Of a stretch of 64,000 bases of DNA, positions 9,894-37,090 are shown piece after piece. Location of the stretch: NCBI GenBank assembly GCA_963693105.1, contig OY843752.1:613789-677788 (forward strand), written 5' to 3'. The stretch is from an uncultured candidatus Porisulfidus sp. GTDB lineage: Bacteria > Pseudomonadota > Gammaproteobacteria > Poriferisulfidales > Oxydemutatoraceae. How positions within the stretch are numbered: position 1 is the stretch's first letter; each line of letters opens with the position of its first letter. Position numbers and translations under genes: made by a program. The notes beneath the pieces were generated by a model. That model saw only the letters and a program-made list of their open reading frames with translations. It searched no databases and was not told the DNA's origin.

Positions 9894-12033
9894 TGTCGTC
9901 CTCCTTTTTTTGTTTGAGTAGTTGTTTTTTCTTGTGGTAAAGATGGTCCGCGAAAGACGCGGCCAGACCGGTGCGCCGCAGCAGCGGTATCGCCGGACGG
10001 GCGAAAGGCAGCAACGGCAACAACGCCCACGAACCATTGCGCGGCGAAGCCCGCCAGGCCAGCGATCTTTTGAAGCATTCGCCGGCTTCGCTGAAGCGTT
10101 CCAGCGCAATCATCTGCAGGCCCGCCAGGCGCCACAAGTCTCCCATCACCCGGCGGCGGATTTTTTTCGGAATGTGTCTGCGCGCACCGAACCGCTCAAG
10201 ACAGTCCTCGCGGATATGCGCCCATCTTTGCAGGTAGTCGTCGTACCTGCGGTGGAGGCGCTCGACGGCGTCTCCGTCGGTGAAGGTGACCGTGCATCGC
10301 GGCACATACAGCCATTCGCCGAGATGGGCGAGGCGCGTGAAAAGTTCGCTGTCGTGGCCGGTTGGCAGGGTTTCGTTGAAGCCGCCGAGTTCCCTGACGA
10401 AGCCGGCGCGAAACAACGTGCATGAAGCGATGCCGGCGCCTTCGGTGAAAAACCATTGCCACGGGTTTTCGGGCAGTTCGCTCTGGTCTATGAATTCCTC
10501 CGCCTGTCGCACGCCATCGGGCGCTGCAAGCGCGTAGCGTATCAGGCGGTCGGTGCTGGCCGCCACCGCGCGCGGCGCGGCGGCGAGCGCGGCGGAGGTT
10601 TTTTCGAGAAAAGACGGCGGCGGGGAATCATCGGAGTCGAGAAAATAAACCAATTCGCAGTCACCGGCTTGTGAGAAGCCATGGTTTCTCGCGGCTGCCG
10701 CTCCCCGGTTGAAGTCGTGCACCAGCAGCCGCGTCTCGAAGGGGCGCTCCGTTTGTTGCCGCCACCGGCGGACTTCTTCGGGCGTGCCGTCGTCTGAGCC
10801 ATCGTCCACGACGACGACCCGGTGAGGCGGTTGCGTCTGGGCGCCGATCCGGTCGAGCACCCGCCGAATCAGGCCGGCGCGGTTGAAGACGGGGACAATG
10901 ACGGCGATTTTCATGCGATCATCGGAGTGCGGTTGAGTCCGGCGGGCGCTTTTTTCCGCCGTTTGCCGCGGCAGTTCATCATTACGCTGTATCGCGGAAT
11001 CGGGCGTCGGCAATTTTTCGGTTTTTTGTTTGAGCAGCCGCTTTTTCTTGTGGCTGAAATGGTCCGCAAAAGTCGCGACCAGGCCGGTGCGCCGCAGCAG
11101 CGGCATGGCCGGGCGGGCCAGAGGCAGCAGTGCCAGCAGCGCCCACGAGCGGTTGCGCGGCGAGGTCCGCCAGGCCAGCGACCTTCTGAAACATTCGCCG
11201 GCCTCGCCGAAACGCTCCAGCGCAATCATCTGCAGGCCCGCCAGACACCAGGAATGTCCCATGATTTTGCAGCGGAGTTTTTTCGGGACATGCGCGCGTG
11301 CGCCGAAATGTTCAAGGCAGTCCTCGCGGACGCGGGCCCAGTCCCGCAGGTAGGCGTCGTGTCCGTGGTAGAGGTGCTTGTCGGCGTCTCCGCCGGTCAT
11401 GGTCACCGTGCATTGCGGCACATGCAGCCATTCGCCGAGATGGGCGAGGCGCGTGAAAAGTTCGCTGTCGTCGCAGGTCGGCAACGTCTCGTTGAAGCCG
11501 CCGAGTTCCCTGACGAAGCCGGCGCGAAACAACGTGCATGAAGCGATGCCGGCGCCTTCGGTGAAAAACCATTGCCACGGGTTTTCGGGCAGTTCGCTCT
11601 GGTCTATGAATTCCTCCGCCTGTCGCACGCCATCGGGCGCTGCAAGCGCGTAGCGTATCAGGCGGTCGGTGCTGGCCGCCACCGCGCGCGGCGCGGCGGC
11701 GAGCGCGGCGGAGGTTTTTTCGAGAAAAGACGGCGGCGGGCAATCATCGGAGTCGAGAAAATAAACCAATTCGCAGTCATCGGCTTGCGAAAGGCCGTGG
11801 TTCCTCGCGGCCGGCGGCCCCCGGTTGAAGTCGTGCACCAGCAGCTGCGTCTCGAAAGGGCGCTTTGTTTGTTGCCGCCACCGGCGGACTTCTTCGGGCG
11901 TACCGTCGTCTGAGCCATCGTCCACGACGACGACCCGGTGGGGCGGTTGCGTCTGGGCGCCGACATGGTCGAGCACCCGGTGAATCAGACCGGCGCGGTT
12001 GAAAACGGGGATAATGATGGCGATTTCTGGCAT
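9862..12033 (-). CDS. fused tandem-duplicated family 2 glycosyltransferase (two near-identical GT2 modules in one 723-aa ORF)
   Basis: both halves start M(P/K)IA(I/V)I(I/V)PVFNRAGLI…VVVVDDGSDDGT…LDSDD; the second module begins at Met encoded at 10915-10913 after a short linker; no stop between the modules. Confidence 0.7.
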   Translation of the reverse strand: MPEIAIIIPVFNRAGLIHRVLDHVGAQTQPPHRVVVVDDGSDDGTPEEVRRWRQQTKRPFETQLLVHDFNRGPPAARNHGLSQADDCELVYFLDSDDCPPPSFLEKTSAALAAAPRAVAASTDRLIRYALAAPDGVRQAEEFIDQSELPENPWQWFFTEGAGIASCTLFRAGFVRELGGFNETLPTCDDSELFTRLAHLGEWLHVPQCTVTMTGGDADKHLYHGHDAYLRDWARVREDCLEHFGARAHVPKKLRCKIMGHSWCLAGLQMIALERFGEAGECFRRSLAWRTSPRNRSWALLALLPLARPAMPLLRRTGLVATFADHFSHKKKRLLKQKTEKLPTPDSAIQRNDELPRQTAEKSARRTQPHSDDRMKIAVIVPVFNRAGLIRRVLDRIGAQTQPPHRVVVVDDGSDDGTPEEVRRWRQQTERPFETRLLVHDFNRGAAAARNHGFSQAGDCELVYFLDSDDSPPPSFLEKTSAALAAAPRAVAASTDRLIRYALAAPDGVRQAEEFIDQSELPENPWQWFFTEGAGIASCTLFRAGFVRELGGFNETLPTGHDSELFTRLAHLGEWLYVPRCTVTFTDGDAVERLHRRYDDYLQRWAHIREDCLERFGARRHIPKKIRRRVMGDLWRLAGLQMIALERFSEAGECFKRSLAWRASPRNGSWALLPLLPFARPAIPLLRRTGLAASFADHLYHKKKQLLKQKKEDDIVYHNQKKQI
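9862..12033. repeat. direct tandem duplication, about 1.1 kb per unit (about 9862-10915 and 10916-12033)
   Basis: the two GT2 modules are about 85-90% identical at protein level (by eye); six-frame shadow ORFs repeat with the same period. Confidence 0.7.
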
Positions 12034-30815: not shown

Positions 30816-31599
30816 TTCGGTTTCCAAGACGCTGATCGTCATCTTCACGCTGTGCGTGCTGTGCTCGGTCGTGGTCTCGACGGCGGCGGTGATGTTGCGG
30901 CCGTTGCAGGAGCAGAACAAGCTGGCGGAACTCAACGCCAGCATCCGGCAGGTCGCGGGCCTGCCGCGCTCCGCCGATGACGACGTTGAATCCGGCACCG
31001 TCGTCGAGGCGCGCATCGTCGAGTTGGCGAGCGGTGAATATGTCACCGAACCCGAAGTCGCCGCCTTCGACATGGTGGATTCCGCGCGCGACCCGCAGTT
31101 GAGCACCGCGCTGGCGGACGGCGACGACATCGCGCGCATTCAGCGCCTGCCGCAGTTTGCCAAAATCTACCTGCTGAAACGCGGCGACCGGCTCGACAAG
31201 ATTGTGCTGCCGCTGTACGGCTACGGCTTGTGGTCCACTCTCTACGGTTTTATCGCGCTCGAAGCCGACGCCAACACGGTTTATGGGCTACAATTCTACC
31301 AGCATGGCGAGACCCCCGGGCTCGGCGGGCGCGTGGACGAACCGGCGTGGCGCGCGTTGTGGCGCGGCAAACGTGTGTATGAAAGCGGTGTCGGCGCGCC
31401 GGTGCTCGACGTCATCAAGGGCCGGGTCGGCGGCGGCGACAGCCGCGCGCCATACAAGGTGGACGGTTTGTCCGGCGCGACCATCACCGGCCGCGGCGTC
31501 GGCAACATGGTTCGTTTCTGGTTCGGCGAGCGCGGCTACAGGAGGTTTCTGTCGAAAAACTGGCCGGAACAGGCCGCCAAAGAATTGACAACGGGATGA
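30805..31599 (+). CDS. nqrC: Na+-NQR subunit C
   Basis: single N-terminal TM, FMN-attachment region …GLSGATITG…. Confidence 0.9.
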   Translation: MANDSVSKTLIVIFTLCVLCSVVVSTAAVMLRPLQEQNKLAELNASIRQVAGLPRSADDDVESGTVVEARIVELASGEYVTEPEVAAFDMVDSARDPQLSTALADGDDIARIQRLPQFAKIYLLKRGDRLDKIVLPLYGYGLWSTLYGFIALEADANTVYGLQFYQHGETPGLGGRVDEPAWRALWRGKRVYESGVGAPVLDVIKGRVGGGDSRAPYKVDGLSGATITGRGVGNMVRFWFGERGYRRFLSKNWPEQAAKELTTG

Positions 31600-31602
31600 T
31601 AA

Positions 31603-32256
31603 ATGGCATGGCGTGAAAACAAAAAGGTTCTGATCGACCCGCTGGTGGACGACAATCCGATTACGTTGCAGATTCTCGGCATCTGCTCGGCGCTTGCCGT
31701 GACCACGACGTTGGCGGCCTCTCTGATCATGTGTCTCGCGCTGACGTCGGTGCTGGCGCTGTCCAACGTCTCGATCAGCATGATCCGCCACCATGTGCCG
31801 ACCAACGTGCGCATCATCGTCCAGATGACCATCATCGCCTCGCTGGTCATCCTGGTGGACCAGATTCTGAAGGCGTATGTCTATGAAATCAGCAAGACGC
31901 TGTCGGTTTTCGTCGGCCTGATTATCACCAACTGCATCGTGCTCGGGCGCGCCGAGGCCTACGCGATGAAAAACCCGCCGCTGGCGAGTTTCTTCGACGG
32001 CCTCGGCAACGGCCTTGGTTACAGTTTCGTGCTGGTGGTGGTCGGCACCACCCGGGAATTGCTGGGTTCGGGCACGTTGCTCGGCTACCCGGTGCTGCGG
32101 CTGATTTCCGAGGGCGGCTGGTACCAGCCCAACGGTCTGATGTTGCTGCCGCCGAGCGCGTTTTTCATCATCGGCCTGATGATCTGGATCATCCGCTCGT
32201 GCAAGCCCCGGCAGGTCGAGCAGGCGGAGTTCCGCATCCGCGCGCAGGCCGCCTGA
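31603..32256 (+). CDS. nqrD: Na+-NQR subunit D
   Basis: …[18 protein letters not shown]… NqrD/RnfE family. Confidence 0.9.
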
Positions 32257-32263
32257 GCGAACC

Positions 32264-32872
32264 ATGGAAATTTATCTGCAACTGCTGATTCAGTCGGTTT
32301 TTGTCGAGAACCTGGCGCTCGCCTTTTTTCTCGGCATGTGCACTTTTCTCGCCATCTCGAAGAAGATCGAGAACGCGGTCGGGCTCGGTATTGCCGTCAC
32401 CGTCGTTCAGGCGCTGACGGTTCCCATCAACAACCTGATTTACCAGTTTCTGCTGAAGAAAGGCGCGCTGGCGTGGGCCGGTCTGGGCGCGATGGATTTG
32501 TCCTTTCTCGGCTTCATCAGTTACATCGGCGTCATCGCCGCGGTGGTGCAAATCCTCGAAATGCTGCTCGACCGGTTTTTTCCGGCGCTGTATAACGCGC
32601 TCGGTATTTTTCTGCCGCTGATTACGGTCAACTGCGCGATTCTCGGCGGTTCGCTGTTCATGGTCGAGCGCAACTACGATTTCGCCGAGAGCGTGGTCTA
32701 TGGTTTCGGCAGCGGTCTTGGCTGGGCCATTGCCATCCTGGCGCTTGCCGGAGTTCGCGAGAAACTCAAATACAGCGATGTTCCCGACGGACTTCAGGGG
32801 CTCGGCATCACGTTCATCACGGTCGGTTTGATGTCGCTCGGTTTCATGGCGTTTTCGGGGATTCTGTTCTGA
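32264..32872 (+). CDS. nqrE: Na+-NQR subunit E
   Basis: …[18 protein letters not shown]… NqrE/RnfA family. Confidence 0.9.
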
Positions 32873-32912
32873 GACATCCGGCGCCCGGGCGGCTCAGAAA
32901 CATTTGTCATAC

Positions 32913-32942
32913 TTGAATCAGGACGACGACATTGGCTATAAT
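32913..32942 (+). promoter_or_regulatory. candidate sigma70 promoter (TTGAAT-18-TATAAT) for divergent precursor gene 0
   Basis: TTGAAT at 32913-32918 and perfect TATAAT at 32937-32942, about 45 nt upstream of the ATG at 32989. Confidence 0.4.
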
Positions 32943-32988
32943 GAGCGTCACTCGGGACATTGACCAACAACATGAAGAGGTTTTAATT

Positions 32989-33312
32989 ATGGCAAAACAA
33001 GAAGACAACACGGTAACACTGCCAAGGATGCCTGAGACGGCATCCGCGGATTTGGCTGCCCGTTACCTCAAGGACGAGGATTTCCGCGCCGAGTTCGACA
33101 AGGACCCGAAAGCGGCGATTTCAAAGGCCGCTGGCCGGGAAGTGCCGTCCGATATGGAAGTCAAGATTCATCGCAACGACGAAAAATGCTGGCACATCGC
33201 GCTTCCGTCAAAGGCGCGGATTGACGCGTTGGGTGAAGAGGACATTGATGGCATATCCGGAGGTGTTGACAGGCGTACACAACACTGGGGCCACGGCTTG
33301 TGCTTCGGTTAA
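32989..33312 (+). CDS. NHLP-leader precursor peptide 0 (divergent; leader …EEDIDGISGG, short core VDRRTQHWGHGLCFG)
   Basis: …ADLAARYLKDEDFRAEFDKDPKAAISKAAGREVPSDMEVKIHRNDEKCWHIALP… is homologous to the leaders of the four downstream precursors; start at Met preceded by GAAGAGG. Confidence 0.6.
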   Translation: MAKQEDNTVTLPRMPETASADLAARYLKDEDFRAEFDKDPKAAISKAAGREVPSDMEVKIHRNDEKCWHIALPSKARIDALGEEDIDGISGGVDRRTQHWGHGLCFG

Positions 33313-33388
33313 GGACAGACTGCGTCTGTCCCCGGAGGCCGGCGAAGGCGCTGACGCGCCCATAACCGCCGGGCGGTCGGAACCCAGA

Positions 33389-33426
33389 CCCGCGGTGCGG
33401 CCCATGGTCGCCCGCGGGTTTTTTTA
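33389..33426 (+). terminator. rho-independent terminator (CCCGCGG…CCGCGGG + T8)
   Basis: GC-rich inverted repeat followed by TTTTTTTT. Confidence 0.6.
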
Positions 33427-33460
33427 TCCGCGCCAACCCGTTCAGAAACCCTTGTCAGTA

Positions 33461-33488
33461 TTGACACAAATATCCAGCCTTGTATATT
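33461..33488 (+). promoter_or_regulatory. sigma70-type promoter TTGACA-16-TATATT of precursor 1
   Basis: consensus -35 and near-consensus -10, about 52 nt upstream of ATG; conserved in every cassette. Confidence 0.55.
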
Positions 33489-33540
33489 CTGCGGCCCTGG
33501 TGCAATTTCGCACAATAACAATTAAAAAAGGAAACCTGTT

Positions 33541-34053
33541 ATGGAAAAACAACAAACCAGCAAGTTGACGATGCCGGTGACGCCTGAGGCAATCTCTGCA
33601 ACGTTGGCCATTCTTTACGCCGAAGATGCGGATTTTCGCGCTGCATTTGACAAGGACCCGAAAGCGACGGTTGCCAAAGTTTCTGGCCAGGAAATCCCGT
33701 CCGATGTGGAAATCGTGGTTCATCGCAACGACCCCAAACGCTGGCATATCACGCTTCCGGTGGAAGGAATGGATGTCGCACAACTGGGGGACAAGGAGAT
33801 GGGGGACGTAGCCGGAGGCGTGTCTTTTTTCACTGGTGCGGGCATGATTGGGTGCATCACTGGCAATATAGTTGCTGCGTTGTGTCCTGGTGCTTGCTGC
33901 TCCCAGGAGCCGGCGTCGGGTACTTCCGCTCCTACTGAGGCCCAGCAGGCGTTTGCCGCCGACCCCTTAGGGCCAATCATTGGCGCGTTGAGCACGATGC
34001 GCGATGCGCTGAACAGGGCAGGTGTCACCGGCTCAAGCGGAAGCGGCGGCTGA
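33541..34053 (+). CDS. NHLP-leader precursor peptide 1 (leader to …MGDVAGG; 77-aa Gly/Ala-rich core with 4 Cys: …IGCITGNIVAALCPGACCSQ…; Gly/Ser tail)
   Basis: leader …ILYAEDADFRAAFDKDPKATVAKVSGQEIPSDVEIVVHRNDPKRWHITLPVEGMD… matches the nitrile-hydratase-like leader peptide family ending in a double-glycine. Confidence 0.8.
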   Translation: MEKQQTSKLTMPVTPEAISATLAILYAEDADFRAAFDKDPKATVAKVSGQEIPSDVEIVVHRNDPKRWHITLPVEGMDVAQLGDKEMGDVAGGVSFFTGAGMIGCITGNIVAALCPGACCSQEPASGTSAPTEAQQAFAADPLGPIIGALSTMRDALNRAGVTGSSGSGG

Positions 34054-34078
34054 TTCGACCGTTTCGGTCTGAACCCAA

Positions 34079-34117
34079 CCCGCGGTGCGGCCCCATGGCC
34101 GCCCGCGGGTTTTTTTA
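34079..34117 (+). terminator. rho-independent terminator (same hairpin + T8)
   Basis: CCCGCGGTGCGGCCCCATGGCCGCCCGCGGG followed by TTTTTTT. Confidence 0.6.
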
Positions 34118-34151
34118 TCCGCGCCAACCCGTTCAGAAACCTTTGTCAGTA

Positions 34152-35247
34152 TGCAAAAGCTCAGACACCTTTGGCACTCTGATCTGCGAGGAGAGCCATG
34201 CAAATCCATCGTGTCGGATACCGCATCAAGGGGTATTCACAAGTAGTCAAATTAGGGCATCTTTGGGATATGACGAGCAAAGATGCCCTGCAACGTATCA
34301 AAATCCTTGAGTTCGCCGAGCGGCACGGACAGGGCGCCGCTATCGATGCCTTTGAAGTCAGTTCGCGTACGCTGTATCGCTGGCGCCGCGCGCTCAAACT
34401 TCACAACAACCGCATCAGCGCACTTACCCCCAAATCATGCGCGCCGCACCGCAAACGGCCGCCGGCCACCGCGCCCGCCGTGGCCGCGCAAATACGCGCC
34501 ATGCGATTCCATAAACACCACCCCAATATGGGCAAAGCCACTATCCACGCCAGCGAGGAGTTCCGGCGCTGGTGCCGCGAGAACCGGGTGGCGCTGCCGA
34601 GTGTGTCCACCATCGGGCGCATCATCGCGCGTGCGCCGGATAAAATGCGCCACGCCCCGCTACGACTCGGCCCGCGCGGACAGCCCAAATCCGTGCGCCA
34701 GCAACACAAAACACGCCGCATCAAAGGTTATCAACCGGCCCCGCTGGAACTCATCGCTGGCGATACCATCGTCCGAATGCGCGATGGCATCCGCCGCTAC
34801 CTCACCACCTTCATCGACCCCAACAGCCGCTTTGCCGTCGCCTTCGCCTCGCGCACCGCTTCCAGCCGTCAAGCCACCCTTACCCTCAACGCCCTCATCG
34901 ACCTGCTGCCGGCAGCCCCCAAATACCTGCTCACCGACAACGGCTCCGAGTTCATGGGCGACTTCCAAAAACGACTCGATGAACTCCATATCACCCACTG
35001 GTGGACCTACCCCAACTCACCCAAAATGAACCCTCACGCCGAACGCTTCAACCGCACCATCCAGGAGAGTTTCGTCGACTACCACGACGACCTCCTGTTC
35101 TCCGACCTGACCCTCTTCAACCAAAAACTCGCCGAATGGCTGGTCTTCTACAACACCCAAAGACCACACCATTCCCTCAAACGCCAATCTCCCATACAAT
35201 ACCTCTCACAACAACTTCCATACTGCCAAAGGTATTGGACTTGTACA
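34152..35247 (+). mobile_element. insertion sequence, IS481-like (about 1.1 kb, imperfect terminal IRs TGCAAAAG…CCTTTGGCA / TGTACAAG…CCTTTGGCA, 5-bp direct repeat CAGTA)
   Basis: interrupts the otherwise conserved spacer …CCTTTGTCAGTA|TTGACACAAG… seen intact in the other cassettes; CAGTA present on both flanks (34147-34151 and 35248-35252). Confidence 0.75.
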
Positions 35248-35256
35248 CAGTATTGA
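34198..35256 (+). CDS. DDE (rve/integrase-core) transposase, IS481-family-like; stop codon lies in the flanking -35 hexamer
   Basis: 352 aa with N-terminal HTH (…SSRTLYRWRR…) and rve core (…LLTDNGSEF…NPHAERFNRTIQ…) ; ORF runs through the right IR and terminates at TGA formed by TSD+TTGACA. Confidence 0.85.
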   Translation: MQIHRVGYRIKGYSQVVKLGHLWDMTSKDALQRIKILEFAERHGQGAAIDAFEVSSRTLYRWRRALKLHNNRISALTPKSCAPHRKRPPATAPAVAAQIRAMRFHKHHPNMGKATIHASEEFRRWCRENRVALPSVSTIGRIIARAPDKMRHAPLRLGPRGQPKSVRQQHKTRRIKGYQPAPLELIAGDTIVRMRDGIRRYLTTFIDPNSRFAVAFASRTASSRQATLTLNALIDLLPAAPKYLLTDNGSEFMGDFQKRLDELHITHWWTYPNSPKMNPHAERFNRTIQESFVDYHDDLLFSDLTLFNQKLAEWLVFYNTQRPHHSLKRQSPIQYLSQQLPYCQRYWTCTQY

Positions 35257-35280
35257 CACAAGTATCCAGCCTTGTATATT
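35253..35280 (+). promoter_or_regulatory. sigma70-type promoter TTGACA-16-TATATT of precursor 2 (immediately abutting the IS right end)
   Basis: same conserved promoter as the other cassettes; upstream terminator/spacer replaced by the IS. Confidence 0.55.
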
Positions 35281-35332
35281 CTGCGGCCATGGTGCAATTT
35301 CGCACAATGACAATTGAAAAAGGATATCTATT

Positions 35333-35794
35333 ATGGAAAAACAACAAGCTAGCACATTGACGATGCCGGTGACGCCTGAGGCGACCTCTGCGACGTTGGC
35401 CCTTCTTTACGCCAAAGACGCGGATTTCCGCGCTGAATTTGACAAGGATCCGAAAGCGGCGATTACCAAAGCTTCCGGCCAGGAAGTCCCGTCCAATGTG
35501 GAAATTGTGGTTCATCGCAACGACCCCAAACGCTGGCATATCACGCTTCCGGTGGAAGGAATGGATGCCGCGCTGGGTGACGCGGATATGGAGAACATAG
35601 CCGGAGGCACGGGAGCGCCGGGCGATATAGCTGGTGCCGCTCTTGGCTTCGCAAGTATGGCGCTGGGTATATGTGGTGGTGTTTGCGGGCAGCAGGATGA
35701 TCCTACCGGCGGACCGATGGGCGCGTTGATAGGGTTAGCCGCGGTGACGGCCGCGACGGCGGTTGCCGGCTCAAGCGGAACCACCGGCGGCTGA
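35333..35794 (+). CDS. NHLP-leader precursor peptide 2 (leader to …MENIAGG; core TGAPGDIAGAALGFASMALGICGGVCGQQDDPTGGPMGALIGLAAVTAATAVAGSSGTTGG)
   Basis: leader homologous to NHLP family; core Gly/Ala-rich with CGGVC. Confidence 0.8.
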   Translation: MEKQQASTLTMPVTPEATSATLALLYAKDADFRAEFDKDPKAAITKASGQEVPSNVEIVVHRNDPKRWHITLPVEGMDAALGDADMENIAGGTGAPGDIAGAALGFASMALGICGGVCGQQDDPTGGPMGALIGLAAVTAATAVAGSSGTTGG

Positions 35795-35820
35795 TCCGAC
35801 CGTTTCGGTCTGAACCCAAA

Positions 35821-35858
35821 CCCGCGGTGCGGCCCCATGGCCGCCCGCGGGTTTTTTT
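35821..35858 (+). terminator. rho-independent terminator (same hairpin + T7)
   Basis: inverted repeat + T-run. Confidence 0.6.
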
Positions 35859-35893
35859 ATCCGCGCCAACCCGTTCAGAAACCTTTGTCAGTA

Positions 35894-35921
35894 TTGACAC
35901 AAGTATCCAGCCTTGTATATT
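35894..35921 (+). promoter_or_regulatory. sigma70-type promoter TTGACA-16-TATATT of precursor 3
   Basis: conserved cassette promoter. Confidence 0.55.
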
Positions 35922-35973
35922 CTGCGGCCATGGTGCAATTTCGCACAATGACAATTGAAAAAGGATATCTATT

Positions 35974-36429
35974 ATGGAAAAACAACAAGCTAGTACGTTG
36001 ACGATGCCGGTGACGCCTGAGGCGACCTCTGCGACGTTGGCGCTTCTTTACGCCAAAGACGCGGATTTCCGCGCTGAATTTGACAAGGACCCGAAAGCGG
36101 CGATTACCAAAGCTTCCGGCCAGGAAATCCCGTCCAATGTGGAAATTGTGGTTCATCGCAACGACCCCAAACGCTGGCATATCACGCTTCCGGTGGAAGG
36201 AATGGATGCCGCACTGGCTGACACGGATATCGAGAACATAGCCGGAGGCACGGGAGCGCCGAGCGATATAACTGGTGCCGCTCTTGGGTTCGTAAGTATG
36301 GCGCTGGGTATATGTGGTGGTGTTTGTGAGCCGGACGGAGGCTACCGGATAGGCTCGTTGGCGGCGTTAGCCGCGGTGACGGGCGCGACGGCTGCTGCCG
36401 GGTCAGGCGGCGGCCCAAGCGGCGGCTGA
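35974..36429 (+). CDS. NHLP-leader precursor peptide 3 (leader identical in most positions to copy 2; core diverges after …GICGGVC: EPDGGYRIGSLAALAAVTGATAAAGSGGGPSGG)
   Basis: as above. Confidence 0.8.
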   Translation: MEKQQASTLTMPVTPEATSATLALLYAKDADFRAEFDKDPKAAITKASGQEIPSNVEIVVHRNDPKRWHITLPVEGMDAALADTDIENIAGGTGAPSDITGAALGFVSMALGICGGVCEPDGGYRIGSLAALAAVTGATAAAGSGGGPSGG

Positions 36430-36455
36430 TTCGACCGTTTCGGTCTGAACCCAAA

Positions 36456-36492
36456 CCCGCGGTGTGGCCCATGGTCGCCCGCGGGTTTTTTT
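36456..36492 (+). terminator. rho-independent terminator (same hairpin + T7)
   Basis: inverted repeat + T-run. Confidence 0.6.
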
Positions 36493-36527
36493 ATCCGCGC
36501 CAACCCGTTCAGAAACCTTTGTCAGTA

Positions 36528-36555
36528 TTGACACAAGTATCCAGCCTTGTATATT
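36528..36555 (+). promoter_or_regulatory. sigma70-type promoter TTGACA-16-TATATT of precursor 4
   Basis: conserved cassette promoter. Confidence 0.55.
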
Positions 36556-36607
36556 TTGCGGCCATGGTGCAATTTCGCACAATGACAATTAAAAAAGGAT
36601 ATCTATT

Positions 36608-37090
36608 ATGGAAAAACAACAATCTAGTACGTTGACGATGCCGGCGACGCCTGAGGCGACCTCTGCAGCGTTGGCCCTTCTTTACGCCAAAGACGCGGAT
36701 TTCCGCGCTGAATTTGACAAGGATCCGAAAGCGGCGATTGCCAAAGCTTCCGGCCAGGAAGTCCCGTCCAATGTGGAAATTGTGGTTCATCGCAACGACC
36801 CCAAACGCTGGCATGTCACGCTTCCGGTGGAAGGAATGGATGCCGCACTGGATGACGCGGATATCGAGAACATAGCCGGAGGCACGGCACCGGGCGCTAT
36901 GGCGACTGCTGTTGGGTTCATGGGTATGGCACTGGGTGTGTGTAGTGGTCTTTGCACGGAGGAGGAGGCTATTTCCAGCATGAGGGACGGCCAGGCGCCG
37001 CACGAATTCTTCCGACAAAATTTTGGCTTGTTTTTTGGAGCTGGGAGTGGTGGTTCTGGCGGCTCAAGCGGCAGCGCAAGCGGCGGCTGA
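36608..37090 (+). CDS. NHLP-leader precursor peptide 4 (leader to …IENIAGG; core TAPGAMATAVGFMGMALGVCSGLCTEEEAISSMRDGQAPHEFFRQNFGLFFGAGSGGSGGSSGSASGG)
   Basis: as above; core with CSGLC and Gly/Ser-rich tail. Confidence 0.8.
   Translation: MEKQQSSTLTMPATPEATSAALALLYAKDADFRAEFDKDPKAAIAKASGQEVPSNVEIVVHRNDPKRWHVTLPVEGMDAALDDADIENIAGGTAPGAMATAVGFMGMALGVCSGLCTEEEAISSMRDGQAPHEFFRQNFGLFFGAGSGGSGGSSGSASGG

Follow-up and report, generated by a model that had tools for sequence, protein, structure and literature searches.

A new insertion sequence from an ISKpn28-like IS481 subgroup that appears to choose the upstream edge of sigma-70-type promoters

Members of the IS481 family have TG...CA termini, usually TGT...ACA, and duplicate 2 to 15 bp of target DNA, mostly 6 bp. 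ISKpn28 was placed in this family by Zaman et al. It is carried on plasmids and prophages of Klebsiella and other enterobacteria. It has been described as a cargo-less insertion sequence (IS) that can disrupt mgrB or lie upstream of a holin gene. An insertion within mgrB at +91 was reported under colistin selection, and 59% of the distinct ISKpn28 sites in a published survey were intergenic. The ISKpn28 papers examined mention neither a promoter target nor a missing stop codon. No description of -35 or promoter targeting by IS481-family or ISKpn28-like elements was found in the openly searchable literature; ISfinder or TnPedia may hold such a rule.

Defined targets have been described for other elements. 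IS1202 falls within IS481 in a published tree, and the transposases are distantly related. The ISAba32 subgroup of the IS1202 family targets XerCD recombination sites, and the idea of a safe haven has been discussed for it (Siguier et al., bioRxiv 10.1101/2022.12.17.520857). IS870 and ISMt1 have a preferred target that supplies the stop codon of the transposase (Fournier et al. 1993, cited in PMC13630536).

We analyzed an IS in a 64-kb stretch of DNA (the window). The IS contains 1,096 bp (34152-35247, + strand) with TG...CA termini. It interrupts one spacer of an array of NHLP-precursor genes between nqrE and nqrF. Its limits were given by in silico excision and by a natural empty site. The target-site duplication CAGTA is present at 34147-34151 on the left and at 35248-35252 on the right. 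In silico removal of 34152-35252 (1,101 bp) gave a spacer of 178 bp, which aligned over its full length with the neighboring spacers of 178-179 bp. The uninterrupted motif CTTTGTCAGTATTGACACAAG was found at 35883 and 36517, and a copy with two mismatches was found at 33450; the chance expectation is 0. A 6-bp duplication, CAGTAT, was possible from the window sequence alone and was rejected. The relatives always start with TG and duplicate 5 bp, so the duplication in the window is CAGTA.

The left inverted repeat is TGCAAAAGCTCAGACACCTTTGGCA (34152-34176, + strand), and the relatives have homologous left ends. The right inverted repeat (35224-35247, - strand; reverse complement TGTACAAGTCCAATACCTTTGGCA) also encodes the last eight residues common to all copies, CQRYWTCT. 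The repeats are imperfect. Aligned with one gap, TGCAAAAGCTCAGACACCTTTGGCA and the reverse complement TGTACAAG-TCCAATACCTTTGGCA agree at 19 of 25 positions. The core of the repeat, ACCTTTGGCA, occurs at two places only in the window, and these are the two IS ends. A promoter at the circle junction was looked for, as expected of copy-out-paste-in elements. The outward -35 of the right end and the -10 of the left end gave weak matches only (TGGACC-16-TAAGTT, 6-nt spacer, 7/12).

The transposase gene (34198-35256, + strand) encodes 352 aa with an N-terminal HTH and a DDE domain. It is a single ORF without a programmed frameshift. The product matches rve, rve_3, HTH_32, HTH_28 and HTH_23, with a weak match to LZ_Tnp_IS481. 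The DDE triad (D189, D247 and E282) is intact and is invariant in the alignment. The gene does not contain a stop codon inside the IS. The frame passes through the right end and into the right CAGTA, which gives codon 351 (CAG) and two bases of codon 352 (TAT). It terminates at a TGA (35254-35256) within the TTGACA -35 box of the next promoter. Twelve transposase products from the host lineage part ways after the shared CQRYWTCT. Annotation pipelines call such genes pseudogenes "missing C-terminus" or fuse them with downstream genes. Neither a sigma-70 region-4-like DNA-binding domain nor a known polymerase-binding domain was found in the transposase, and its N terminus consists of ordinary transposase HTHs. 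A leader hairpin that hides the RBS was visible in Nitrospirales and ISKpn28 copies, where it was not significant against shuffles, and was weak in the window copy (z = 0.5).

The best NCBIfam match of the transposase is IS481 (NF033577) with 164.2 bits, which is below the curated cut-off of 224. IS3 comes next with 92 bits. NF033577 spans residues 32-335 and includes neither the N-terminal extension of ~31 aa nor the tail that the right end encodes. The transposase is 42% identical to that of ISKpn28 over the full length (residues 1-352). PGAP labels the latter "IS481-like element ISKpn28 family transposase," and NCBI gives the relatives no name beyond "integrase core domain-containing protein." Because the amino acid identity to ISKpn28 is only 42%, the window element, from an uncultured gammaproteobacterium, is a different, unnamed IS. 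It has the features of the IS481 family: a single-ORF DDE transposase with rve and HTH domains, TG...CA termini (TGC... and ...ACA), and a 5-bp duplication that is within the family range. ISKpn28 shares with it a length of ~1.1 kb, TG...CA termini, an inner inverted-repeat core ~20 nt from each end, a 5-bp duplication (GAGTA or CAACA), and a frame that runs through the right end. We define here an ISKpn28-like, promoter-abutting subgroup. The window copy is a member by its layout, its orientation and its open frame.

The same site is uninterrupted in a sister genome (L051) with flanks that are ~98% identical. The promoter is present there without the IS. The two window alignments overlap on L051 at 11885-11890, CAGTAT. 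At least six copies of the IS are present on the same 1.83-Mb contig as the window. The sister assembly contains six copies, each exactly 1,096 bp, that are 96.3-98.5% identical in nucleotide sequence to the window IS. The first-pass annotation had described an IS481-like insertion of about 1,096 bp with a CAGTA duplication, imperfect inverted repeats and a transposase stop taken from the flanking TTGACA. All of this held. It had also proposed a search for a named relative, for other copies in the genome and for an empty site in a related strain, and each of these was found.

The IS abuts the promoter of the next precursor gene. The -35 hexamer is TTGACA (35253-35258, + strand) and contains the transposase stop. 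The -10 hexamer is TATATT (35275-35280, + strand), 16 nt after the -35 hexamer, and the promoter has 11 of 12 matches. Identical promoters are present at 33461, 35894 and 36528, before other cassettes. The targeted promoter belongs to an NHLP-leader precursor gene of 153 aa (35333-35794, + strand; TIGR03793, below cut-off). The upstream NHLP-leader precursor gene encodes 170 aa (33541-34053, + strand). Its intrinsic terminator (34077-34116, + strand) consists of a stem-loop at 34077-34111 and an overlapping U7 tract at 34110-34116. The terminator and the spacer had been thought to be removed by the insertion. This was not the case. The terminator is intact (-31.8 kcal/mol, z = -5.5), lies ~35 nt to the left of the IS, and aligns with the terminators of the other spacers. 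The full spacer is also intact. Both have been shifted 1.1 kb away from the promoter, whose core was left unchanged by the insertion.

An 18-mer, GTTCAGAAACCTTTGTCA (34131-34148, + strand), is similar to the inner core of the inverted repeat of the IS. It is identical to the left-end core of the window IS at 15 of 18 positions and to that of the relatives at 17 of 18. A copy is present before every promoter of the array, with 6 hits in the window against 0.03 expected. The sister genome, in which this site is empty, contains the 18-mer as well. The insertion parted this copy from its promoter. For the window, this means that a recent insertion has come between one of five peptide-precursor promoters and its upstream 18-bp element. 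That the upstream element of the array promoters has the sequence of a transposase-binding core hints at a possible cross-talk of transposase-type DNA-binding proteins with the regulation of peptide genes. The array contains five cassettes in the window and seven in the sister genome. Unequal crossing-over between tandem repeats explains this difference without the IS. Because the duplication is intact, an IS-mediated deletion of two cassettes is indistinguishable from ordinary unequal crossing-over. The insertion had also been taken to mark the array as recombination-active, a reading that we do not retain; its position follows the general preference of the group for promoter edges.

We pooled 114 distinct insertions from many taxa, with flanks that are otherwise unrelated. 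The discovery set contained 39 copies from Nitrospirales, Zeta-, Beta- and Gammaproteobacteria, a CPR bacterium, and others; 24 of these were from one genome. The replication set contained 67 independent metagenomic sites, for which the IS ends were set by a rule blind to the flank. The sites share one layout. A 5-bp duplication is followed immediately by a TTGACA-like hexamer and, 16-18 nt on, by a TAnnnT hexamer. The window copy reads CAGTA and then TTGACA-16-TATATT.

The discovery set (n = 39) had T36 T32 G35 A26 C26 A/T at +6 to +11 past the IS end and T23 A25 nnn T25 at +29 to +34. Both hexamers matched at four or more of six positions at 19 of the 39 sites, compared with 0.19% of random positions. 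Both were present at 40 of the 67 replication sites, compared with 0.53%, and the signal was found at offset 0 only among offsets -4 to +4. The pooled value was 62 of 114 sites at four or more of six positions for both hexamers, compared with 0.2-0.5% of random positions. Exact 5-bp duplications were present in 23 of 37 discovery copies. The promoter signal is on one side only, and the right end and the transposase 3' end face the promoter. The left flank, read outward, had promoter matches in 0 of 37 discovery copies. No stop closes the transposase frame before the IS end in 113 of the 114 copies, and a TGA stop is present at +7 to +9 in 61 of the 114.

Other loci fit the same layout. A copy of ISKpn28 upstream of a phage holin gene reads GAGTA and then TTGAAA-17-TAAATT. 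A Nitrosophilus relative and an E. coli relative follow the target rule. Co-directional tRNA genes start 39-81 nt past the IS end in 6 of 57 loci, compared with 0.04 expected, and homologous hok/sok-type promoters were hit independently. About a quarter of the sites have a weak -35. No recognizable promoter was found at L060 (upstream of catA2), L062, L113 or L116. Because such sites and the mgrB insertion exist, the targeting is a strong preference and is not absolute. The median stop-free span was 155 codons at insertion points compared with 368 at random positions, a crude measure in GC-rich genomes that carries little weight; calling the downstream genes from ORFs is just as crude. The exact fit to the -35 box and the borrowed stop recur systematically in the group. 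The first-pass annotation saw them as one-off curiosities and overlooked this. The 114 insertions suggest that, as a rule, these elements insert at the upstream edge of a promoter, in a single orientation, and often take their stop codon from it.

Many IS carry outward-facing promoters, and a single case cannot separate an accident from a rule. The window copy could on this basis have landed beside a -35 box by chance, or the promoter could belong to a longer element. The 114 sites have the same arrangement in otherwise unrelated flanks. The duplications stand between the IS end and the -35 hexamer, the sister genome contains the promoter without the IS, and identical promoters are present before other cassettes. 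The chance and own-promoter readings are already refuted, and we give them almost no weight. It is also very improbable that the 18-mer, similar to the transposase-binding left-end core and located 3 nt from the -35, recruited the transposase in place of the promoter. The resemblance is close, and the 18-mer adjoins the insertion point, which overlaps its last two bases. However, the array contains four or five equivalent sites without an IS. A sequence like an IS end was found at 1 of 43 group sites, that of the window, and cannot explain the general rule; it was rejected as a general feature of the targets. The 18-mer may at most be an added factor at this locus.

A further reading is that the transposase itself reads TTGAC beside the cut site. 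Insertions at intragenic TTGAC would be purged, leaving intergenic words, many of which are real -35 boxes. The read-out may perhaps stem from likeness to a TGGAC/TTGAC motif inside the element's own right end, which has TGGAC, TGGCC or TTGAC 7 nt from the terminus. The -35 positions (T105, T98 and G93, followed by A74 and C68; n = 114) are more conserved than the -10 positions (T65, A70 and T71; n = 114), which favors such a read-out. One copy is inside a gene, at TTGCGC-17-AACAAT. All sites are also fixed insertions and are filtered by purifying selection to some degree. Selection cannot, however, set a position to the single nucleotide; an insertion anywhere between -40 and -200 would do no more harm, but the signal is found at offset 0 alone. 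The termini of the Nitrospirales copies are identical, as would fit a recent burst, and these copies already follow the target rule. Sites with a -35 unlike TTGAC keep a near-consensus -10 at 16-18 nt, which is impossible for a reader of TTGAC only. Among 31 sites with a poor -35 (three or fewer of six positions), 13 have a -10 with at least five of six at 16-18 nt, compared with 1.26% by chance (p = 3e-17). The -10 score does not drop with the -35 score (Spearman 0.10). We regard direct read-out of TTGAC with selection as unlikely.

The best overall explanation is that the window contains a recent, probably active copy of a new IS from a promoter-choosing, ISKpn28-like subgroup of IS481, and we consider this probable. 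Members of the subgroup choose sigma-70-type promoters as targets. The cut would be staggered by 5 bp and would lie immediately before the -35 hexamer. The element inserts in a single orientation, with the right end and the transposase 3' end toward the promoter. The transposase frame leaves the element, and in about half of the copies, that of the window included, it stops two codons on at the TGA of TTGAca. The core promoter is kept, and the downstream gene retains its -35 and -10. That gene loses everything upstream of -36, here an 18-bp element, and would be exposed to read-through from the transposase gene. The data show directly the anatomy of the window copy, its empty site, the presence of several copies, and the target rule together with its orientation.

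The spacer between the -35 and -10 is 17 nt at 52 sites, 16 nt at 16 sites and 18 nt at 14 sites. From the well-placed -10 at sites with a poor -35, and from the tRNA promoters among the targets, we infer that the element recognizes the RNA polymerase holoenzyme-promoter complex, or a DNA distortion at its upstream edge, and not TTGACA alone. The benefit to the element would be a harmless landing site that brings a stop codon. We propose tentatively, and with slightly less than even confidence, a broader version of this reading. A widespread IS group, from Klebsiella and E. coli to Nitrospirota, Campylobacterota and CPR bacteria, may dock on promoter-bound sigma-70 holoenzyme and integrate at the upstream edge of the -35 in a fixed orientation. 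Since the -35 hexamer usually provides a stop codon, the group may have given up its own.

If the rule holds experimentally, these elements would be bacterial DNA transposons that pick functional promoters with single-nucleotide precision and fixed polarity. It would then have to be asked how a DDE transposase detects a transcription complex. It would also explain how high copy numbers are tolerated; at least 24 copies are present in one 2.7-Mb genome, and the group is found in ~20% of complete E. coli genomes. Each insertion would sever a promoter from upstream activator, repressor or UP elements and subject it to transcription that reads through from the transposase gene. ISKpn28, a common IS on clinical Klebsiella plasmids, belongs to this group. 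The flanks of the elements could serve as a free, organism-independent promoter marker in uncultured bacteria. The ability to place DNA exactly upstream of promoters could also make the enzyme useful as a tool.

The window IS resembles IS481 and ISLxc2 in its single IS3-related DDE gene, its length (~1-1.1 kb) and its TG...CA termini. ISLxc2, a canonical IS481-type element, duplicates 6 bp at NCTAGN, whereas the window IS duplicates 5 bp and has a promoter target. Elements of the ISAba32 subgroup are always oriented, as is the window IS, and their distance to the protein-bound site is that of their own 5-6 bp duplication. Their left end abuts the XerC arm of a XerC/XerD site, whereas the right end of the window IS abuts the -35/-10 of a sigma-70 promoter. 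The transposases of the IS1202 family are also larger (54 kDa for IS1202 itself). IS870 and ISMt1 have, like the window IS, a transposase frame that is open at the element end and is closed by the flank. The C termini of IS1239 vary with the flanks, and its open frame is closed by flanking DNA in the same way. IS870 obtains a TAG from CTAG, whereas the window group uses the TGA of the -35 in about half of the copies, as a by-product of targeting a functional signal instead of a 4-bp word. No CTAG was found at the junctions.

The yeast retrotransposons Ty3 and Ty1 use an integrase that places the element at a fixed distance upstream of polymerase III start sites through the transcription machinery, and genes are spared. 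If docking on RNA polymerase is true, the window group would be a bacterial counterpart of this targeting. The likeness is a functional analogy only. Ty3 and Ty1 are eukaryotic LTR retrotransposons with an RNA intermediate, and their partners were shown by experiment, whereas the role of RNA polymerase in the window group is one that we infer. Genes for tRNA are among the targets in both.

Between nqrE and nqrF, five NHLP-leader peptide precursor genes form an array, and the IS481-like element lies within it. The element comprises 1,096 bp between two copies of CAGTA (34147-34151 and 35248-35252). The left end is TGCAAAAGCTCAGACACCTTTGGCA, and the right end, as the reverse complement, is TGTACAAGTCCAATACCTTTGGCA. 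These inverted repeats are identical at 19/25 positions with one gap, and both contain the core ACCTTTGGCA, which has no other copy in the 64-kb window. The transposase, a 352-aa product of the ORF at 34198-35256, has rve, rve_3, and HTH matches and an intact DDE triad (D189, D247, and E282). The stop codon of the ORF, the TGA at 35254-35256, is outside the IS, within the -35 hexamer TTGACA (35253-35258). With the -10 hexamer TATATT (35275-35280), this hexamer forms a sigma-70-type promoter (11/12), and identical promoters are present at 33461, 35894, and 36528. In silico excision of 34152-35252 leaves a 178-bp spacer that aligns over its full length with the spacers of the neighboring cassettes. 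The unbroken sequence CTTTGTCAGTATTGACACAAG is found in other array spacers, with a chance expectation of 0. The duplication, the imperfect inverted repeats, the stop codon supplied by the flank, and the uninterrupted spacer of the other cassettes had all been claimed in the first-pass annotation and are borne out. In the transposase mRNA leader of relatives (L002, 2952-3015; ISKpn28 copy L059, 1440-1515), the inner inverted-repeat core, GGCACTCC, is predicted to pair with GGAGTGCC in the Shine-Dalgarno region. Such pairing is a classic way of keeping read-through transcripts from being translated. The stem predicted for the window leader (34172-34196) is interrupted by an A-A mismatch and falls short of significance.

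The best NCBIfam model for the window transposase is IS481, with 164 bits versus 92 bits for IS3. This score is below the curated cutoff of 224, and the model spans only residues 32-335, leaving out an N-terminal extension of about 31 aa that is specific to the group. The nearest named relative is ISKpn28, an IS481 family element by published classification. It has the same architecture, and its transposase is 42% identical over the full length. ISKpn28 is present on 2,244 plasmid records, and its right end (...TGTGGTGGACCCATACA) is identical to that of one Nitrospirales relative. Duplications are 6 bp, at NCTAGN, in canonical IS481-type elements and 5 bp in this group. We place the window IS, as a new element, in the ISKpn28-like branch of IS481.

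Many taxa harbor relatives at about 56% identity, and one 2.7-Mb Nitrospirales MAG (OZ245029.1) has at least 24 copies. The termini of these copies are identical, which points to a recent burst. Two of them (L013) share an orientation and are separated by about 1.7 kb. Another relative, about 75% nucleotide identical to ISKpn28, is present in 1,089 of 5,426 complete E. coli genomes. The three E. coli chromosomal copies fetched (L142 to L144) are in the galF-yegH intergenic region, with yegH 73 nt downstream. The duplication there is imperfect (TTGCC/TTGCA), and the -35, TTTTAG, is a poor match.

An NqrE identical to that of the window is encoded in the sister genome (ENA ERZ22155170), whose seven-cassette array contains no IS. 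Window positions 31000-34152 match its array locus (L051, 8737-11890) at 98.4%, and the window from 35248 onward aligns from L051 position 11885. The two alignments overlap by CAGTA and one ambiguous T, so L051 is a natural empty site. The first-pass annotation had named an empty site in related strains and copies elsewhere in the genome as points to check, and both were found. The window transposase (P0121) is encoded on a 1.83-Mb contig. It is identical through ...CQRYWTCT to five further products of this contig and six of the sister assembly. Past this point, the products are wholly different (QY, CT, GG, or IHSD followed by a stop, RDRPAAAG..., and others). The six sister-genome copies fetched are each 1,096 bp and 96.3 to 98.5% identical to the window copy, and four have a perfect 5-bp duplication. 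Given these near-identical copies and the empty site, the window IS is multicopy, with its DDE triad intact, and was inserted in the array after the two genomes diverged.

L056 and L058 are sister-genome copies on contig ctg25695l. The left flank of L056 terminates in GGTGC, the right-hand duplication of L058, so flanks were exchanged between the copies. This indicates recombination between IS copies, probably an inversion. Such recombination likely explains many of the copies without matching duplications in other genomes. The transposase frame of the L056 copy (product P0124, 3001-4749) reads through into a small downstream gene for a different GG-leader peptide (...LSPLTQEQLANISGG...); thus, a second peptide-precursor promoter of the lineage was targeted. 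At L057 (4074-5294), a sister-genome copy adjoins an IS605-type TnpB (OrfB) gene on the opposite strand, and the target of this copy has a poor hexamer, TTCCGA, followed by TACAAT at 17 nt.

In the right flanks of the relatives, as in the window, 5 nt separate the IS end from a TTGACA-like hexamer, and TAnnnT lies about 17 nt further on. The discovery set contained 39 copies, and flanks were not realigned. Base counts were T36 T32 G35 A26 C26 A/T at +6 to +11 and T23 A25 nnn T25 at +29 to +34. Both hexamers matched at 4/6 or better at 19/39 sites versus 0.19% of 20,000 positions drawn at random from these loci. Read outward, the left flank gave 0/37, which is the random level; insertion is therefore polar. 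All left ends start with TG, and 23/37 copies, from several taxa, have an exact 5-bp duplication. The replication set contained 67 distinct metagenome-contig sites that had no role in pattern discovery, with IS ends placed by a flank-blind rule. Both hexamers matched at 40 of these sites (0.53% expected), and TTG was present at +6 to +8 in 49. When the test window was slid from -4 to +4, the signal was found at offset 0 only. The 114 pooled sites gave T105 T98 G93 A74 C68 for the -35 and T65 A70 ... T71 for the -10, and the last duplicated base was C in 67. At the sequence level, this target rule almost certainly holds for the group.

The transposase might recognize the word TTGAC alone. A reader of that kind could not find the correct -10 distance where TTGAC is absent. 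Yet of the 31 sites whose -35 scores 3/6 or less, 13 (for example, TACCAT-17-TATGAT, TACGGT-17-TATAAT, and GGGAAT-17-TGaTATAAT) have a -10 of at least 5/6 at 16 to 18 nt. The chance level is 1.26% (p = 3e-17). The spacer was 17 nt at 52 sites, 16 nt at 16, and 18 nt at 14. Selection alone could not yield single-nucleotide precision, with signal at offset 0 only. A codirectional tRNA gene begins 39 to 81 nt past the IS end in 6/57 loci (0.04 expected), which places the IS on tRNA operon promoters without disruption. These loci are L007 (Gln), L023 (Arg-Lys), L028 (Phe), L045 (Asn), L053 (Glu), and L117 (Met-Met); L053 is a sister-genome copy of the window's own IS. Homologous hok/sok-type promoters were targeted four times independently, in E. 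coli beside hokD (L145) and in metagenomes (L073, L076, and L083). The target is TCTCC or CCTCC, then TTGCCT or TTGCAA, and TAnnCT after 17 nt. It faces away from hok and could be that of the antisense sok. Insertion also cuts hok off from its own upstream region. In a published comparison, ISKpn28 was upstream of a holin gene in several prophages.

Judged by sequence, the targeted promoters are real and often strong. The independence of the -10, the single-nucleotide precision, and the tRNA and hok/sok targets argue that the whole promoter is recognized. We favor a mechanism in which the transposase would recognize the RNA polymerase-promoter complex or a DNA bend at its upstream edge. A domain search found no sigma-like or known polymerase-binding domain in the transposase. 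Polymerase docking taken alone is tentative, at slightly less than an even chance. The full explanation, including polymerase-dependent recognition, is probable against its rivals.

The transposase frame, which ends in a terminal ACA codon, is open to the IS end in 113/114 copies. In 61/114, as in the window, the frame is closed by the TGA of TTGAca, two codons past the IS end. In the 19 discovery-set copies without that TGA, the frame extends 5 to 197 codons further. Because of the target rule, the borrowed stop is a property of the group. The open frame misleads annotation, producing false pseudogenes and fusion proteins. For the common E. coli copy, the PGAP label of pseudogene "missing C-terminus" is an artifact of the open-ended frame. 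Gene callers also yield fusions, and P0124 as called is such an artifact (582 aa).

The first-pass annotation was largely right in its overall interpretation. Its claim that the upstream terminator and spacer were lost does not stand; both are intact and merely displaced 1.1 kb from the promoter. The terminator is a stem-loop at 34077-34111 with a U tract (-31.8 kcal/mol; z = -5.5). Its inference, from the IS, of a recombination-active array is not supported either. For the third precursor gene (35333-35794), the core promoter survived the insertion unaltered. All DNA upstream of -36 is now IS sequence, and the 18-mer GTTCAGAAACCTTTGTCA of this promoter is displaced to a distance of 1.1 kb. 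With no terminator separating the transposase gene from this promoter, transcription may read through into the precursor gene.

The array (32932-37090; L051, 10726-14970) contains NHLP-leader (GG-motif) genes in tandem within the Na+-NQR operon. Every gene is served by a TTGACA-16-TATATT promoter of its own and by a strong terminator. The window has five cassettes and the sister genome seven; the window cassette that follows the IS is most similar to the fifth of the sister genome. The host is an uncultured gammaproteobacterium, as its NqrF is 93% identical to that of Gammaproteobacteria MAGs and 72% to that of Arenicella. The 18-mer is at 32892-32909, 33440-33457, 34131-34148, 35873-35890, and 36507-36524, with seven copies in L051. 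It lies 3 nt ahead of the -35 at every array promoter, including the first despite its unrelated surroundings, and is kept in the IS-free array of the sister genome. It is identical at 17/18 positions to the inner left-end core of related ISs and at 15/18 to the window IS core. Only 1/43 insertion sites of the group has such a neighbor. The 18-mer resembles a conserved upstream promoter element whose specificity would be that of a transposase-binding site.

A published survey placed 59% of distinct ISKpn28 sites in intergenic regions and drew no conclusion about the target. Full-text literature searches turned up no description of promoter or -35 targeting in the IS481/ISKpn28-like family; ISfinder and TnPedia were outside this search. 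The oriented, single-nucleotide-precise association of this branch with sigma-70 promoters, together with its borrowed stop, appears to be an undescribed variant of IS behavior. IS870 and ISMt1 are precedents for a stop codon supplied by the target, theirs being TAG from CTAG (Fournier et al. 1993, as cited in PMC13630536) and that of the window IS being TGA from TTGACA. IS1239 is a precedent for transposase C termini that vary with the flank. The closest mechanistic precedent for the targeting is the ISAba32 subgroup of IS1202, which falls within IS481 in a published tree and is a distant relative of the window IS. Members of this subgroup insert in one fixed orientation, at a distance from a XerCD site equal to their 5- to 6-bp duplication (bioRxiv 10.1101/2022.12.17.520857).
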